Virus record (IMG/VR): IMGVR_UViG_3300035670_000062
Location: 1 to 64,000 of that record
Direction: 5' to 3' (one strand)
Source: a virus
DNA: 64,000 nt
Positions 29,830 through 45,926 of the stretch are shown here, in pieces. The position numbers and the translations under genes were made by a program. Every line of letters begins with the position of its first letter. Within the stretch, counting starts at the first letter, position 1. The notes beneath the pieces are model-generated. The model did not search any database, was not told the DNA's origin, and saw nothing but the letters and a program-made list of their open reading frames with translations.

Positions 29830-30045
29830 ATGAGTGATTTTTATAAAAATATTCTTGAATTTCAAGATAAAAGAGTTTCAAAACTTTGTGTAACTTTTGG
29901 TATAACTAAAGGTTATTTAGATATGTTGATGAGTCAAGATAAAATCTCTAAAAAAGATGTTGAAGTTCTAATTAACAGAATGGAAAAACTTTGGGGACAA
30001 ATTCAAGATTCAAAACTTGATAAGATACAAATGGAATTACTGTAA
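29830..30045 (+). CDS. Hypothetical protein
   Basis: ORF track. Confidence 0.6.
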   Translation: MSDFYKNILEFQDKRVSKLCVTFGITKGYLDMLMSQDKISKKDVEVLINRMEKLWGQIQDSKLDKIQMELL

Positions 30046-30052
30046 ATTCCTT

Positions 30053-31797: not shown

Positions 31798-31810
31798 TTA
31801 TTGTATTTTG

Positions 31811-31842
31811 TTTGGCTCCCCAGGGAGCCATTCGTATCTTTA
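31811..31842 (+). promoter_or_regulatory. Promoter with TGGCTCC-N4-GGAGCCA inverted repeat
   Basis: Repeated motif. Confidence 0.75.
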
Positions 31843-31872
31843 GTATATAAGAAACAAATAAAAATAAAAGTT

Positions 31873-33206: not shown

Positions 33207-33225
33207 TAATTTCTATTTGATTTTG

Positions 33226-33257
33226 TTTGGCTCCCCAGGGAGCCATTCGTATCTTTA
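33226..33257 (+). promoter_or_regulatory. Promoter with TGGCTCC-N4-GGAGCCA inverted repeat
   Basis: Repeated motif. Confidence 0.75.
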
Positions 33258-33281
33258 GCGTATAAGAAACAAATAAAAGTT

Positions 33282-33686
33282 ATGTTATACGAATTGATTG
33301 TAAAAAGTAAAATTAATACTTATAGAAGTAGAATTACTTCTTCTAATACTATTAATATTTCTAATGGAATTTATAGAGAATTTAAATATCAATATTCTCA
33401 CCCCATTATACCACCTAGTTTAGTAAGTTTAAATGATAAAAAATTTATAGTACCTGAGTGGATAGAGGTTCATCCTAATACTGAATTAACAGATATTGAG
33501 TGGATAAAACCTATAAAAGAATATGTAAAACCTAATATTGAAATAATTGAATTTAAATCATCATCTAGTTCAGAAATTCATAGAGTTACTATTAAAGATG
33601 GGAAGATGAAATGTTCATGTATGGGATTCTTTAGGGGGAGAGGAAAGTGTAAACATACAAAAGAAGTTGAAGAAAGTAGAAAGTAA
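33282..33686 (+). CDS. SWIM zinc-finger protein
   Basis: CSCMGFFRGRGKCKH. Confidence 0.8.
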   Translation: MLYELIVKSKINTYRSRITSSNTINISNGIYREFKYQYSHPIIPPSLVSLNDKKFIVPEWIEVHPNTELTDIEWIKPIKEYVKPNIEIIEFKSSSSSEIHRVTIKDGKMKCSCMGFFRGRGKCKHTKEVEESRK

Positions 33687-33697
33687 GTAATGATTTG

Positions 33698-33729
33698 TTT
33701 GGCTCCACAAGGAGCCATTTGTATCTTTA
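33698..33729 (+). promoter_or_regulatory. Promoter with TGGCTCC-N4-GGAGCCA inverted repeat
   Basis: Repeated motif. Confidence 0.7.
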
Positions 33730-33773
33730 GCGTATAAGAAATTAAAAATAATTGTAGAAGAAATAGAAAAAAT

Positions 33774-35601: not shown

Positions 35602-35633
35602 TTTGGTTACCTGAAAAATGGTTCGTATATTTA
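35602..35633 (+). promoter_or_regulatory. Promoter of leader/tRNA operon
   Basis: TTTG-N20-TATATTTA; a second TATTTATA motif near 35675. Confidence 0.7.
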
Positions 35634-35688
35634 CAGTATAAGAAAGAAAAGATCGACTTAAAAAAGAAAACACATATTTATAATAAAA

Positions 35689-35808
35689 ATGAAAAATTGT
35701 AGCCTAAATATTAACCTTACGAATACATGGAGTCGCCCGACTAATCATGATGGGGTCTATTCATTTAGAGCGAAATCATCAGACAAAATAAAACCACCCG
35801 GTTTATAA
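35689..35808 (+). CDS. Putative attenuator leader peptide MKNCSLNINLTNTWSRPTNHDGVYSFRAKSSDKIKPPGL
   Basis: 39 codons, 31 distinct, 18 amino acids; between promoter and terminator in front of the tRNA array. Confidence 0.75.
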   Translation: MKNCSLNINLTNTWSRPTNHDGVYSFRAKSSDKIKPPGL

Positions 35809-35843
35809 ATAGAATTATATATAATAATTATATCAACCCGGGT
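35796..35843 (+). promoter_or_regulatory. Putative antiterminator hairpin
   Basis: ACCCGG (35796-35801) pairs with CCGGGT (35838-35843) in the terminator 5' arm, closing an AT-rich inner stem (AATTAT/ATAATT). Confidence 0.65.
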
Positions 35844-35869
35844 TTACAAAGTTAAGCTCGGGTTTTTTT
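35835..35869 (+). terminator. Intrinsic terminator immediately upstream of the tRNA array
   Basis: AACCCGGGTTT-loop-AAGCTCGGGTT followed by T7. Confidence 0.85.
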
Positions 35870-35876
35870 GTTTTAA

Positions 35877-35948
35877 GGCTTTTTAGTTTAATTGGTAAAA
35901 TACGATACTTGTAATATTGAGAAAATGGTTCGAATCCATTAATGGCCT
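35877..35948 (+). tRNA. tRNA-Thr(TGT), weak acceptor stem
   Basis: CGATA-CTTGTAA-TATTG arm, GGTTCGAATCC. Confidence 0.8.
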
Positions 35949-35956
35949 CTTAAAAT

Positions 35957-35968
35957 TGTTCTTTGACA
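35957..35968 (+). promoter_or_regulatory. boxA-like Nus antitermination site
   Basis: TGTTCTTTGACA, versus rrn boxA TGCTCTTTAACA. Confidence 0.6.
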
Positions 35969-35986
35969 TATTGGAAATTAAAAAAT

Positions 35987-36069
35987 GGAAGTGATCCGGC
36001 TGGATGAGGAGCTGTTCTTGAAAAGCAGTAATGCTTATGGTATTGTGAGTTCGAGTCTCACCGCTTCCG
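35987..36069 (+). tRNA. tRNA-Ser(TGA)
   Basis: CT-TGA-AA loop, long variable arm, G73. Confidence 0.85.
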
Positions 36070-36075
36070 CAATAA

Positions 36076-36151
36076 CGAGTAGTAGAGGAGTCAGGTTTAT
36101 CTCGCTTGGTTTGGGACCAAGAGCACGCAGGTTCGGATCCTGCCTACTCGA
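36076..36151 (+). tRNA. tRNA-Pro(TGG)
   Basis: CTTGG-TTTGGGA-CCAAG. Confidence 0.9.
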
Positions 36152-36193
36152 CTAAAAATAAAATCATATAATTATGAAAAGTGACAAACAAAC

Positions 36194-36267
36194 GCTCTCG
36201 TAACTCAGTTGGATAGAGTACTAAGCTTTTAACTTAGGAGTCAATGGTTCAAATCCATTCGGGAGCA
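36194..36267 (+). tRNA. tRNA-Lys(TTT)
   Basis: CTAAG-CTTTTAA-CTTAG. Confidence 0.92.
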
Positions 36268-36274
36268 CAAAAAT

Positions 36275-36349
36275 GGTCTATTGGTGAAGTGGCTATCATC
36301 TCTGCCTGTCACGCAGAAGTAGACGGATCGTAACCGTCATGGACCGCCA
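36275..36349 (+). tRNA. tRNA-Asp(GTC)
   Basis: TCTGC-CTGTCAC-GCAGA, encoded CCA. Confidence 0.9.
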
Positions 36350-36353
36350 AAAT

Positions 36354-36429
36354 ATATCCTTAGCTCAGTTGGAAGAGTAACATGTTTACATCATGAAGGT
36401 CCTAGGTTCAAGTCCTAGAGGATATACCA
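36354..36429 (+). tRNA. tRNA-Val(TAC)
   Basis: ATATCCT/AGGATAT acceptor, TT-TAC-AT loop, CCA. Confidence 0.88.
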
Positions 36430-36435
36430 TCACAA

Positions 36436-36483
36436 GTAGAGGACATTGGCCGTGTAAAGGTGCCACTACCAAGAAAGATGTCC
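36436..36483 (+). ncRNA. Small pseudoknot-capable element in tRNA spacer
   Basis: GTAG/CTAC, GGACAT/ATGTCC, TGGC/GCCA. Confidence 0.35.
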
Positions 36484-36489
36484 AAATTT

Positions 36490-36570
36490 GGGAGATTATA
36501 CCGTAGAGGTAGCGGGGCAGCCTGTAAAGTTGTTACGAAAGTTCGGGTGGTTCGACTCCATCATCTCCCA
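36490..36570 (+). tRNA. tRNA-Tyr(GTA)
   Basis: CT-GTA-AA loop, long variable arm. Confidence 0.88.
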
Positions 36571-36577
36571 CTTCTAA

Positions 36578-36691
36578 GGGTAAAACGCTTCCTGAACCGA
36601 TGTTGGGAGGTTATTGAAGAGTGGTTAAAGGCCATAATATATCTTTGTCGGGGATATATAGTTTTGTAAAAGCTTCAATTTAGTTTTACCC
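36578..36691 (+). ncRNA. Unidentified multibranch structured RNA (~114 nt) within the tRNA array
   Basis: GGGTAAAAC/GTTTTACCC closing stem, ATTGAAG/CTTCAAT, three further hairpins. Confidence 0.6.
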
Positions 36692-36701
36692 CCGGTACTT
36701 T

Positions 36702-36773
36702 GGCTCTATGGTGAAATGGTTATCACTGCGGACTGTTAATCCGTCATTCCAAGTTCGAGTCTTGGTGGAGCCG
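36702..36773 (+). tRNA. tRNA-Asn(GTT)
   Basis: GCGGA-CTGTTAA-TCCGT. Confidence 0.92.
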
Positions 36774-36782
36774 CAATAAAAC

Positions 36783-36859
36783 AGACACATATACCCTCCG
36801 CCTGATACGCGGTAGAAAGGTTAATTGGTTGCATGTAGGTTCAAGTCCTACTGTGTCTA
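36783..36859 (+). tRNA. Atypical tRNA-Ile(GAT)-like RNA lacking a D-arm
   Basis: AGACACA/TGTGTCT acceptor, CCGC-CTGATAC-GCGG arm, perfect T-arm, 22-nt segment between anticodon arm and T-arm. Confidence 0.65.
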
Positions 36860-36864
36860 CATTT

Positions 36865-36947
36865 GGAAAATAAAATAGAGAGGATCTATAACCGCCTGCT
36901 AAGCGAGTTGTACCATCAGGTATGTGTTTCGAGTACACTGTTTTCCG
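36865..36947 (+). tRNA. tRNA-Ser(GCT), atypical D/T loops
   Basis: CT-GCT-AA loop, long variable arm, G73. Confidence 0.75.
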
Positions 36948-36949
36948 CT

Positions 36950-37025
36950 GTGTTCATAGTGTTAAGGGTTAGCACGTTTGGTTGTGGTTCAAAAAGTATG
37001 GGTTCAAATCCCATTGAACACCCCA
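36950..37025 (+). tRNA. tRNA-His(GTG)
   Basis: TT-GTG-GT loop, C73, CCA. Confidence 0.88.
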
Positions 37026-37028
37026 ATT

Positions 37029-37100
37029 GCGGATTAGGTTATGGTAACCAAGAGGCCTCCAAAACCTCAGGACAAGGTTCGATTCCTTGAGTCTGCGCCA
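37029..37100 (+). tRNA. tRNA-Trp(CCA)
   Basis: CT-CCA-AA loop, G73, CCA. Confidence 0.85.
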
Positions 37101-37105
37101 TGTAA

Positions 37106-37178
37106 GGGAGTATAGCAAAGATGGTTTATGCGCTGGACTGAAAATCCAGAGATACAGGATCGTTACCTGTTGCTCCCA
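37106..37178 (+). tRNA. tRNA-Phe(GAA)
   Basis: CTGGA-CTGAAAA-TCCAG. Confidence 0.9.
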
Positions 37179-37190
37179 CAAAAATAAAAT

Positions 37191-37263
37191 GGGTCTGTGT
37201 CCGAGTGGTTACAGGTGACTTCCTGCAAAGTTGTTTACATAGGTTCGAATCCTATAAGACCCT
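37191..37263 (+). tRNA. tRNA-Cys(GCA)
   Basis: CT-GCA-AA loop, U73; mismatched anticodon stem. Confidence 0.82.
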
Positions 37264-37270
37264 CTAAAAT

Positions 37271-37344
37271 GCCTATATGGCGGAATTGGTAGACGCGCTT
37301 GATTTAGGATCAAGATTTTACAGGTTCGAGTCCTGTTATGGGTA
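37271..37344 (+). tRNA. tRNA-Leu(TAG), short variable region
   Basis: Leu-type D-arm GGCGGAATTGGTAGACGC, CTTGA-TTTAGGA-TCAAG. Confidence 0.85.
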
Positions 37345-37349
37345 CAAAA

Positions 37350-37422
37350 GTATTCTTAGTTCAATTGGATAGAACCTCTAACTACGGATTAGAGAATGTA
37401 TGTTCGAGTCATACAGAATACT
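37350..37422 (+). tRNA. tRNA-Arg(ACG)
   Basis: TCTAA-CTACGGA-TTAGA. Confidence 0.9.
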
Positions 37423-37427
37423 CAAAT

Positions 37428-37499
37428 GTCTCTATAGTTCAATGGATAGAATTTTTCTCTTCTAAAGAAAAGATGCTGGTTCGAATCCAGCTAGGGATA
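37428..37499 (+). tRNA. tRNA-Arg(TCT)
   Basis: TTTCT-CTTCTAA-AGAAA. Confidence 0.9.
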
Positions 37500-37505
37500 C
37501 TAAAA

Positions 37506-37578
37506 GCGGGTATCGTATAATGGTTAATTACACTAGCCTTCCAAGCCTGTGATGTTGGTTCGATTCCAACTACCCGCT
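37506..37578 (+). tRNA. tRNA-Gly(TCC)
   Basis: GCGGGTA/TACCCGC, CT-TCC-AA, U73. Confidence 0.9.
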
Positions 37579-37596
37579 CATATATTTATTTTAAAT

Positions 37597-37670
37597 GGGG
37601 ACGCATGTACCAAGACTGGCGAAGGATACTTGCAATATCCTTGTGGTGGATTTGATTTCCACCGTCTCCA
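37597..37670 (+). tRNA. tRNA-Ala(TGC)
   Basis: G3:U70 acceptor, GGATA-CTTGCAA-TATCC. Confidence 0.82.
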
Positions 37671-37673
37671 CTT

Positions 37674-37847
37674 TATTTTACTGGATTGGGCCAGTTAAAA
37701 TAGTTGCTTAAGCCCAAAGCGTTATATTACATAATATAGATGCAATGCATGTAGTTTAGCAGCTTAGACACCATTCGAGTGAAAGCTGTAGGGATAGATA
37801 CCTAGTATTTTAAGAGAAGAATAGTAACTTAATCTCAAACCATCTAT
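37674..37847 (+). ncRNA. Putative pseudoknotted RNA at the 3' end of the tRNA operon
   Basis: Hairpin 37674-37702 whose loop TTGGG matches CCCAA 37713-37717; AGTTGCT/AGCAGCT; ATAGATG/CATCTAT. Confidence 0.5.
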
Positions 37848-37856
37848 GCGAATTTG

Positions 37857-37888
37857 TTTGGCTCCTCAGGGAGCCATTCGTATCTTTA
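37857..37888 (+). promoter_or_regulatory. Promoter with TGGCTCC-N4-GGAGCCA inverted repeat
   Basis: Repeated motif. Confidence 0.75.
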
Positions 37889-37918
37889 TGGTATAAGAAA
37901 CAAATAAAAATAAAAGTT

Positions 37919-45836: not shown

Positions 45837-45855
45837 AACCACTTCTATGAATTTG

Positions 45856-45887
45856 TTTGGCTCCACAGGGAGCCATTCGTATCTTTA
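45856..45887 (+). promoter_or_regulatory. Promoter with TGGCTCC-N4-GGAGCCA inverted repeat
   Basis: Repeated motif. Confidence 0.75.
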
Positions 45888-45926
45888 TATTATAAGATTA
45901 ATTAATAAAAACAAAAAATAAAAGTT

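Follow-up and report, generated by a model that had tools for sequence, protein, structure and literature searches.

Attenuators of enterobacterial amino-acid operons (thr, with codons for Thr and Ile; ilvGMEDA, with codons for Ile, Leu and Val; trpL, hisL and pheL) share a simple layout: soon after the promoter comes a short open reading frame (ORF), the first structural gene is preceded by an intrinsic terminator, towards the 3' end of the ORF lies an antiterminator strand that a terminating ribosome would cover, and the regulatory codons are related to the product of the operon. Here we describe a locus with this layout in a viral genome, its antiterminator strand being a predicted one, in which a promoter, a 39-codon leader ORF and an intrinsic terminator stand directly before a long array of transfer RNA (tRNA) genes. 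It lies within positions 1 to 64,000 of the IMG/VR virus record IMGVR_UViG_3300035670_000062 (the window in what follows, being the first 64 kb of a 113-kb contig). From its anatomy and from comparison with many related leaders, we consider it probable that the locus is a ribosome-mediated, multivalent leader-peptide transcription attenuator, which would gate a phage tRNA operon by sensing the tRNAs of the array itself.

The locus differs from the enterobacterial attenuators in several respects. The operon encodes tRNAs rather than biosynthetic enzymes, so that tRNA supply itself would be sensed, and up to 17 amino acids are each represented in the leader by one to three codons, whereas the enterobacterial leaders hold runs of codons for one to three amino acids. 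It is also borne by a phage with a Bacteroidota-type host and has a boxA downstream. Hosts of this type initiate translation without being led by a Shine-Dalgarno sequence.

Other described systems resemble parts of the arrangement. In T-box riboswitches a leader likewise reads the status of a tRNA and chooses between a terminator and an antiterminator; T-boxes, however, bind a single uncharged tRNA directly, without a ribosome, and control synthetase or amino-acid genes. In the tnaC and pyrBI attenuators, as proposed here, termination depends on where the leading ribosome stands with respect to the polymerase, but tna relies on Rho and on Trp-induced arrest at the stop codon, pyrBI senses uridine triphosphate by polymerase pausing, and neither gates tRNA genes. 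Ribosomal RNA (rRNA) operon antitermination (boxA with NusB/NusE, NusA, NusG and SuhB; for NusB-NusE-boxA biology see PMC3177189) and lambda nut share with the locus a boxA ahead of a long untranslated RNA operon, here a 17-mer of the host phylum's type; in contrast to the rRNA operons, this boxA follows a putatively regulated terminator and a first tRNA gene. A full-text literature search returned no account of tRNA genes controlled by a leader peptide, nor of phage tRNA arrays that contain a boxA.

The proposed mechanism is as follows. Host RNA polymerase would start at the phage promoter and transcribe the leader. If the leader is translated smoothly to its stop codon (35806-35808), the ribosome would cover ACCCGGUUU (35796-35804), the terminator would fold and transcription would end 8 nucleotides (nt) before the gene for tRNA-Thr. 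A ribosome that lags or stalls within codons 2-31 would instead leave ACCCGG free to pair with CCGGGU of the terminator 5' arm before the 3' arm emerges. The polymerase that reads through would transcribe tRNA-Thr and then boxA, which is predicted to recruit host Nus factors and so to make transcription of the long untranslated array processive. Since the leader codons are those read by the array tRNAs, the product would feed back on its own synthesis: the tRNAs made would restore decoding of the leader and close a negative feedback loop. Many of the leader codons are NNG or otherwise rare and are wobble-read by U34 tRNAs of the array, which may heighten the responsiveness of the sensor.

Leader ORFs ahead of phage tRNA arrays

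Array loci for comparison across families were collected from IMG/VR by motif scans, and three distant relatives of the present phage (G001, G003 and G004) were included. Among the fetched IMG/VR loci we found 68 terminators immediately upstream of the first tRNA gene of an array, that gene often being tRNA-Thr and being followed by a boxA. Upstream of nearly all 68, an ORF of 18-51 codons, mostly starting with Met-Lys-Thr or Met-Lys-Asn, ends at a distance of 22-40 nt. The initial annotation of the stretch had suggested looking for short ORFs before the tRNA arrays of related phages; those we observed group into about 20 families at 50% identity.

For the family representatives, we took the best duplex that the terminator 5' arm can form with the stretch beginning at the ATG and ending just short of that arm, and compared it with 300 dinucleotide shuffles. 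A segment complementary to its own terminator 5' arm was detected at p <= 0.05 in 13 of the 20 representatives and at p <= 0.01 in 9, and each significant representative has its own sequence, matched to its own terminator. The controls were 42 ordinary terminators that follow long genes in the same loci; one of these reached p <= 0.05 and none p <= 0.01, and the distribution of their p values was flat, with a median of 0.53. Fifteen representatives have p <= 0.1, and in 13 of them the end of the segment falls -1 to +18 nt from the stop codon (expected fraction 0.22; binomial p = 2e-7), within the footprint of a terminating ribosome. The pairing of terminator and antiterminator that had been anticipated is therefore seen at the level of the families, but at the present locus it falls short of significance (p = 0.19).

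The amino-acid set of each leader was compared with that of its own array by the Jaccard index, with composition-matched random open frames and permuted leader-array pairings as null models. Against random frames the combined p value is 2e-10 (Fisher), or about 4e-8 when recalculated without the present locus, and the mean index of 0.525 compares with 0.426 +/- 0.019 when the arrays are permuted, the observed value being reached in 0 of 20,000 permutations; the families are partly homologous and the limits of the arrays were set by rule, so these p values overstate the independence of the tests. Leader amino acids thus track array content, as had been predicted. A test at the level of codon boxes, confined to arrays that hold just one of two isoacceptor types, gave the same direction for Leu, where the box matches the array anticodon 20:3 although TTA dominates these genomes, and for Arg, at 8:2. 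Excess codon diversity, which had been expected of the related leaders as well, is slight: across families it lies just above the composition-matched null (Fisher p = 0.003), and at this locus it does not exceed chance (p = 0.34).

The same correspondence can be followed within the largest family, which comprises 39 complete members, 26 of them unique (alignment A2), with compensatory changes in the terminator stems. In its phages the tRNAs are split over two arrays. Ala, Asp, Glu and Gly are missing from both the first leader and the first array, while the second leader and its array both carry Gly, Asp, Glu and Leu. Compared with this family, the present leader and its array both have Asp, Gly and Ala, and both are without Gln. 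A hidden Markov model built from alignment A2 finds its best match in the present genome at 35668-35889 (E = 0.0036); this falls on the leader locus, which we therefore take to be a divergent member of the large family.

Closer relatives were sought without success in GenBank phages, where blastn gave matches to tRNAs only and tblastn of the protein encoded downstream gave none, and a search of IMG/VR and JGI metagenomes with the flanking proteins returned relatives at 44-49% identity only. The flanking proteins are singletons at 90% identity, and homologues of the downstream protein (P0003-P0013) are 65-78% identical to it. An exact search for the terminator pattern gave no match.

In the 187-kb relative G001, one array begins with a tRNA-Cys gene directly after a terminator (18535-18508), upstream of which stand a Bacteroidota-type promoter and a 27-codon ORF (L021 18648-18565, minus strand); the tRNA-Cys gene is followed by an 86-codon ORF and by two tRNA-Val and three tRNA-Leu genes. 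Leu, Val or Cys make up half of the residues of the 27-codon ORF, and a segment of 9 base pairs (bp) within its last codons pairs with the terminator 5' arm. G003 (L023 1460-1567) and G004 (L027 968-1060) carry homologous short ORFs, in which GGGCTC near the 3' end matches GAGCCC of the terminator preceding the big array. G001 also encodes a tRNA with anticodon CTA (L022 9961-10037, minus strand), an amber suppressor that ARAGORN labels 'Pyl' and that has its own promoter, which hints at recoding of TAG in this phage.

At the present locus, the leader ORF contains 31 distinct sense codons for 18 amino acids, and after Met1 it has no Glu, Gln or Met. Codons 2-28 alone, and equally codons 2-39, yield exactly the 17 amino acids of the array, as the initial annotation had stated. 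The GC-rich codons to which it had drawn attention are indeed atypical of this genome, in which AGC, ACG, CGC, CCG, GGG, GTC and GCG each account for 0-7% of their synonymous family; among the 38 codons that follow the ATG, 10 are rare, and G+C at third codon positions is 29% in the leader ORF and 14% genome-wide. To judge chance, random open frames were drawn with the leader ORF's own base composition. At least 17 amino acids are reached by 28-33% of them, so the count is ordinary, and at least 30 codons by 7-9%; we have accordingly dropped high codon diversity as evidence, and the excess claimed for this ORF lies within chance. Equality with the amino-acid set of the array is a different matter. 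It occurs in about 2e-4 of random frames, or 1e-4 when scored as a Jaccard index of 1.0. The view that this equality was fortuitous was dropped after the cross-family tests, which agree with the claim that the leader codons stand for the downstream tRNAs. We stress that a plainly non-coding ORF at 37595-37711, over the Ala-like tRNA gene and a ribozyme, has the identical set of 17 amino acids, which warns against leaning on the single case.

The switch at this locus and its alternatives

The ACCCGG in leader codons 36-38 (35796-35801) lies 24 nt past codon 28 and is complementary to CCGGGT at 35838-35843, as had been noted from the sequence. The antiterminator strand ends 2-4 nt before the leader stop codon. 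In folds of a nascent RNA that ends before the terminator 3' arm, the six core antiterminator pairs form with probabilities of 0.75-0.99. The alternative pairing thus exists in silico, and for it to act as a switch the leader would have to be translated and the ribosome coupled to the polymerase.

Several points weigh against this reading, in addition to the partial homology of the families mentioned above. The antiterminator duplex at this locus (-11.5 kcal/mol) has only 6 contiguous pairs (+2) and does not stand out from dinucleotide shuffles, and at equilibrium the whole fold with the antiterminator (-24.8 kcal/mol) loses to that with the terminator (-32.3 kcal/mol) by about 7.5 kcal/mol. 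Parts of the terminator arm outside the antiterminator helix stay free to initiate strand displacement. In the model, the switch at this locus would have to act kinetically and would probably leak. The classical model also has a different default state: without a ribosome the fold predicts read-through, and no 1:2 pause or anti-antiterminator hairpin of the kind known from trp, which would synchronise ribosome and polymerase, is evident, as the fold of the untranslated leader keeps the antiterminator (probability 0.73-0.96) and the alignment of the large family has no conserved 1:2 helix. Two subgroups of that family are without a significant antiterminator, and Ser codon boxes give no signal (14:11), ARAGORN often missing Ser tRNAs. 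A leader with one codon per tRNA would sense only weakly beside the his, leu and pheA leaders with their runs of codons, and the model requires close coupling of translation and transcription in Bacteroidota. Finally, the ORF of the largest family has a ratio of non-synonymous to synonymous polymorphism (pN/pS) of 0.75, with the second codon position the most variable, from which it follows that amino-acid identity matters little; blocks within the ORF are invariant even at third codon positions (A2 columns ~104-123 and 153-173), a constraint at the RNA level for which the attenuator model does not account. A GGG:CCC pairing considered as the conserved antiterminator of the large family was dropped, as it amounts to just 3 invariant pairs.

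The case for an attenuator from this locus alone is therefore weak, and it is the cross-family comparison that carries it: we regard the interpretation as strong at the level of the superfamily and as moderate for the present locus. A leader of the trp/his type with a masking ribosome, as first proposed, remains the best-supported reading by virtue of the roughly 20 families, although its local antiterminator is not significant and the 1:2 hairpin is missing.

The same observations can be read in other ways. Promoter, short ORF and terminator could form an independent small gene or small RNA, possibly of dual function, that merely lies upstream of the array, the tRNAs then being made through constitutive leakage of the terminator or with the help of a phage or host antitermination factor, and the amino-acid match reflecting ancestry and chance. 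We consider this unlikely. The blocks invariant at synonymous sites and the pN/pS value do point to a role at the level of RNA, cleavage by RNase P at the tRNA 5' end would free an RNA, about 230 nt long, that finishes with a hairpin and a U tract, the antiterminator at this locus is weak, and the non-coding ORF in the same window shows that the amino-acid set can be shared by chance. In the largest family, however, ATG, frame and stop codon are kept in 39 of 39 complete members, and the three indels inside the ORF are all of 3 nt, while indels of 1-4 nt occur outside it, in the 5' leader, in the spacer and in the loop of the terminator. A small gene would also leave aside the complementary segment, which 13 of 15 families have shortly upstream of the stop codon and which lacks a counterpart in the 42 control terminators, the leader-array match that withstands permutation of the pairings, and the Leu codon boxes that follow the array anticodons.

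Still less probable, in our judgement, is an RNA switch that binds a protein or ligand, whether riboswitch-like or sensing tRNA directly as T-boxes do, in which the terminator would be the expression platform and the ORF incidental. The invariant nucleotide blocks of the large family would suit such a switch, as would a long-range helix that RNAalifold predicts on A2 between the start-codon region and the 3' end of the ORF, and the UGG found in mid-ORF, which 14 of 20 representatives have as Trp where 6.8 would be expected to, could serve as an RNA motif and not as a codon. The helix shows no covariation, however, and in a scan of 35640-35876 no cis-regulatory family of Rfam, T-box included, reaches its threshold, the best sub-threshold scores (L20 leader, 28.9 bits against 58.7; NsiR1, 24 against 39) being at chance level. 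An incidental ORF would not be expected to retain its frame, its ATG and a stop codon adjacent to the antiterminator across otherwise unrelated families, and the match of amino acids to arrays would be left unexplained.

Nascent-peptide arrest of the TnaC or SecM kind, in which a conserved Trp-containing peptide would stall the ribosome on some signal and the site of the stall would set termination, without codon content being sensed, seems very improbable: the enrichment of Trp in mid-peptide and the recurrence of N-x-W-S/F-like motifs across families speak for it, but the weak constraint on amino acids does not, six families are without Trp, and as tRNA-Trp is present in most arrays a Trp codon is expected under the matching model too. 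That the ORF is a spurious frame, present by chance in a non-coding leader between its promoter and terminator and without regulatory significance here, seems equally improbable. Its codon diversity is ordinary for its composition and the antiterminator of the locus falls short of significance, but the two amino-acid sets are exactly equal (p about 1e-4 to 2e-4), a widespread leader family shares homology with the locus in both position and sequence, and the same architecture is present in all three distant relatives examined.

A boxA of Bacteroidota type in the array and the layout of the locus

The 17-mer between the genes for tRNA-Thr and tRNA-Ser is found 7-13 nt upstream of tRNA genes in four phages (the present one, G001, G003 and G004; L021, L022, L023 and L027), and in G003 and G004 it is repeated behind internal promoters. 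The exact sequence occurs in more than 115 IMG/VR contigs, in about half of them 7-13 nt before a tRNA gene. Exact copies are also carried by more than 120 bacterial genomes, which with few exceptions belong to the Bacteroidota. Those of Pedobacter and Niabella are located in the 16S-23S spacer, between the spacer tRNAs and the 23S gene, which is the classical place of the spacer boxA in rRNA (rrn) operons. As the 17-mer is the rrn spacer boxA of Bacteroidota, the host of the phage is very probably a member of this phylum. An earlier idea that the 17-mer was an internal promoter was dropped, since it matches the rrn boxA and is situated within the transcript.

The position of boxA downstream of the terminator indicates that the array is transcribed from upstream, through the terminator, and the switch would thus precede the point at which a termination-resistant complex would assemble. 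With the terminator 8 nt before the first tRNA gene, there is no space for a promoter in between; a promoter hidden in the terminator and its U tract was considered and dropped, as by reading we found no acceptable -33/-7 pair there.

Promoter, 39-codon ORF, terminator and tRNA array all lie where the initial annotation had placed them (Table 1). The promoter is one of about 25 plus-strand copies, found by motif scan, of a repeated phage promoter family with the consensus TTG-N19-TAnnTTT(G/A), which is of the Bacteroidota sigma-A (housekeeping) type. An A-rich leader and then an ATG follow every copy, and because it shares this context the start of the leader ORF resembles genuine phage gene starts. 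Many of the copies also have a GC-rich hairpin, GGCTCC-N4-GGAGCC, between the -33 and -7 elements (for example at 31799-31850, 33214-33265, 33686-33740, 37845-37900 and 45844-45900), and such copies look like combined terminator and promoter units. The placing of the first tRNA gene between terminator and boxA is shared with many related phages.

Table 1. Coordinates of the elements of the leader and array in the window
Feature	Coordinates	Strand	Details
Promoter	35602-35642	+	Found by search of the phage's own genome and motif scan; TTTGG 35602-35606, -7 box TATATTTA 35626-35633, TATAAG 35637-35642
Leader ORF	35689-35808	+	39 codons; stop codon 35806-35808
Proposed stall window	35692-35781	+	Codons 2-31; stalls here would keep the antiterminator strand uncovered; all 17 array amino acids represented, each by one or more codons, often rare and wobble-read
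Antiterminator 5' strand (predicted)	35796-35804	+	ACCCGGTTT; codons 36-39; pairs with 35835-35843 (6 bp, one mismatch, 2 bp)
AT-only hairpin	35809-35833	+	Enclosed by the antiterminator helix; from folds
Intrinsic terminator	35835-35874	+	5' arm 35835-35846, loop 35847-35852, 3' arm 35853-35864, U tract to 35874; 12-bp stem 35835-35864, -15.3 kcal/mol
tRNA-Thr (tgt)	35877-35949	+	First gene of the array, between terminator and boxA; ARAGORN
boxA-type 17-mer	35958-35974	+	GTTCTTTGACATATTGG; between tRNA-Thr and tRNA-Ser; single copy in the 113-kb contig
Rest of the array	35982-37670	+	ARAGORN, reading by eye and folds; gene order in the text

After tRNA-Thr the array runs Ser-tga, Pro, Lys, Asp, Val, Tyr, Asn, Ile-like, Ser-gct, His, Trp, Phe, Cys, Leu-tag, Arg-acg, Arg-tct, Gly and Ala-like. 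ARAGORN reports 15 of these tRNAs at its default setting and adds Ser-tga and Ser-gct at a lowered threshold, Rfam giving a weak match to Ser-tga. The Ile-like (36783-36859) and Ala-like (37597-37670, with G3.U70) genes come from reading by eye and folds only, so that of the 19 tRNA genes first counted 17 are supported by a tool, and a total of 19 is plausible. The Ile-like gene, on the plus strand and with anticodon GAT, has acceptor, anticodon and T arms, is without a D arm and carries a D-loop-like sequence in its variable region; neither ARAGORN nor Rfam calls it.

Two other structured elements lie on the plus strand in or next to the array. A Pistol self-cleaving ribozyme at 37680-37745 (Rfam RF02679, 55.8 bits against a threshold of 34.5), between the last tRNA-like gene and the next promoter, may process the 3' end of the array transcript. 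Between tRNA-Tyr and tRNA-Asn, about 115 nt at 36578-36692 form a 9-bp closing stem with 3-4 internal hairpins (-34 kcal/mol, z = -2.0); this element has no Rfam match and gives a weak ARAGORN 'Asp' call at the lowered threshold only.

The window has a G+C content of about 28%, and nearly all its long ORFs are on the plus strand; its genes include those for a baseplate wedge protein, GroEL, nicotinamide phosphoribosyltransferase and DNA ligase. The window also contains a first tRNA cluster at 29830-30052 (plus strand; Met, Met, Leu-taa, Gln, Glu), which is without a leader-terminator unit. The cluster starts 8 nt after a 71-codon ORF that ends in Gln-Met-Glu-Leu-Leu, exactly the amino acids of the cluster, and a 6-bp hairpin (30033-30038 with 30045-30050), without a U tract, spans the stop codon of this ORF.

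tRNA supply in Bacteroidota phages

Phage tRNA arrays are common, and the control of their expression is hardly known. With the balance about even in our estimate, the leaders described here may together constitute a widespread, codon-resolved homeostat of tRNA supply in Bacteroidota phages, each array being under negative feedback from leader codons, often rare and wobble-read, that exactly its own tRNAs read. Output of tRNAs would then rise only when decoding by array tRNAs is slow, and boxA would make the polymerase processive once it is committed. Slow decoding could have its cause in a mismatch with host codon usage, in host shut-off or in host anticodon nucleases; the initial annotation had suggested starvation and tRNA cleavage of the PrrC, RloC or PARIS type as possible triggers. 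Such a leader would be the first attenuator known for tRNA genes and the most multivalent leader known.

If the attenuator reading is correct, the textbook attenuation of amino-acid operons would double as a feedback sensor of tRNA supply, with up to 17 decoding activities read by one small ORF. Such a leader would amount to a compact natural sensor of translation capacity, and it would mean that ribosome-polymerase coupling is used for regulation in Bacteroidota. Through their boxA, these phages appear to draw on rRNA antitermination of the host in expressing their tRNA operons. The leaders would also provide a handle on why phages carry tRNAs at all, whether for codon compensation or for escape from host tRNA cleavage, since each leader would report the shortage that triggers it.

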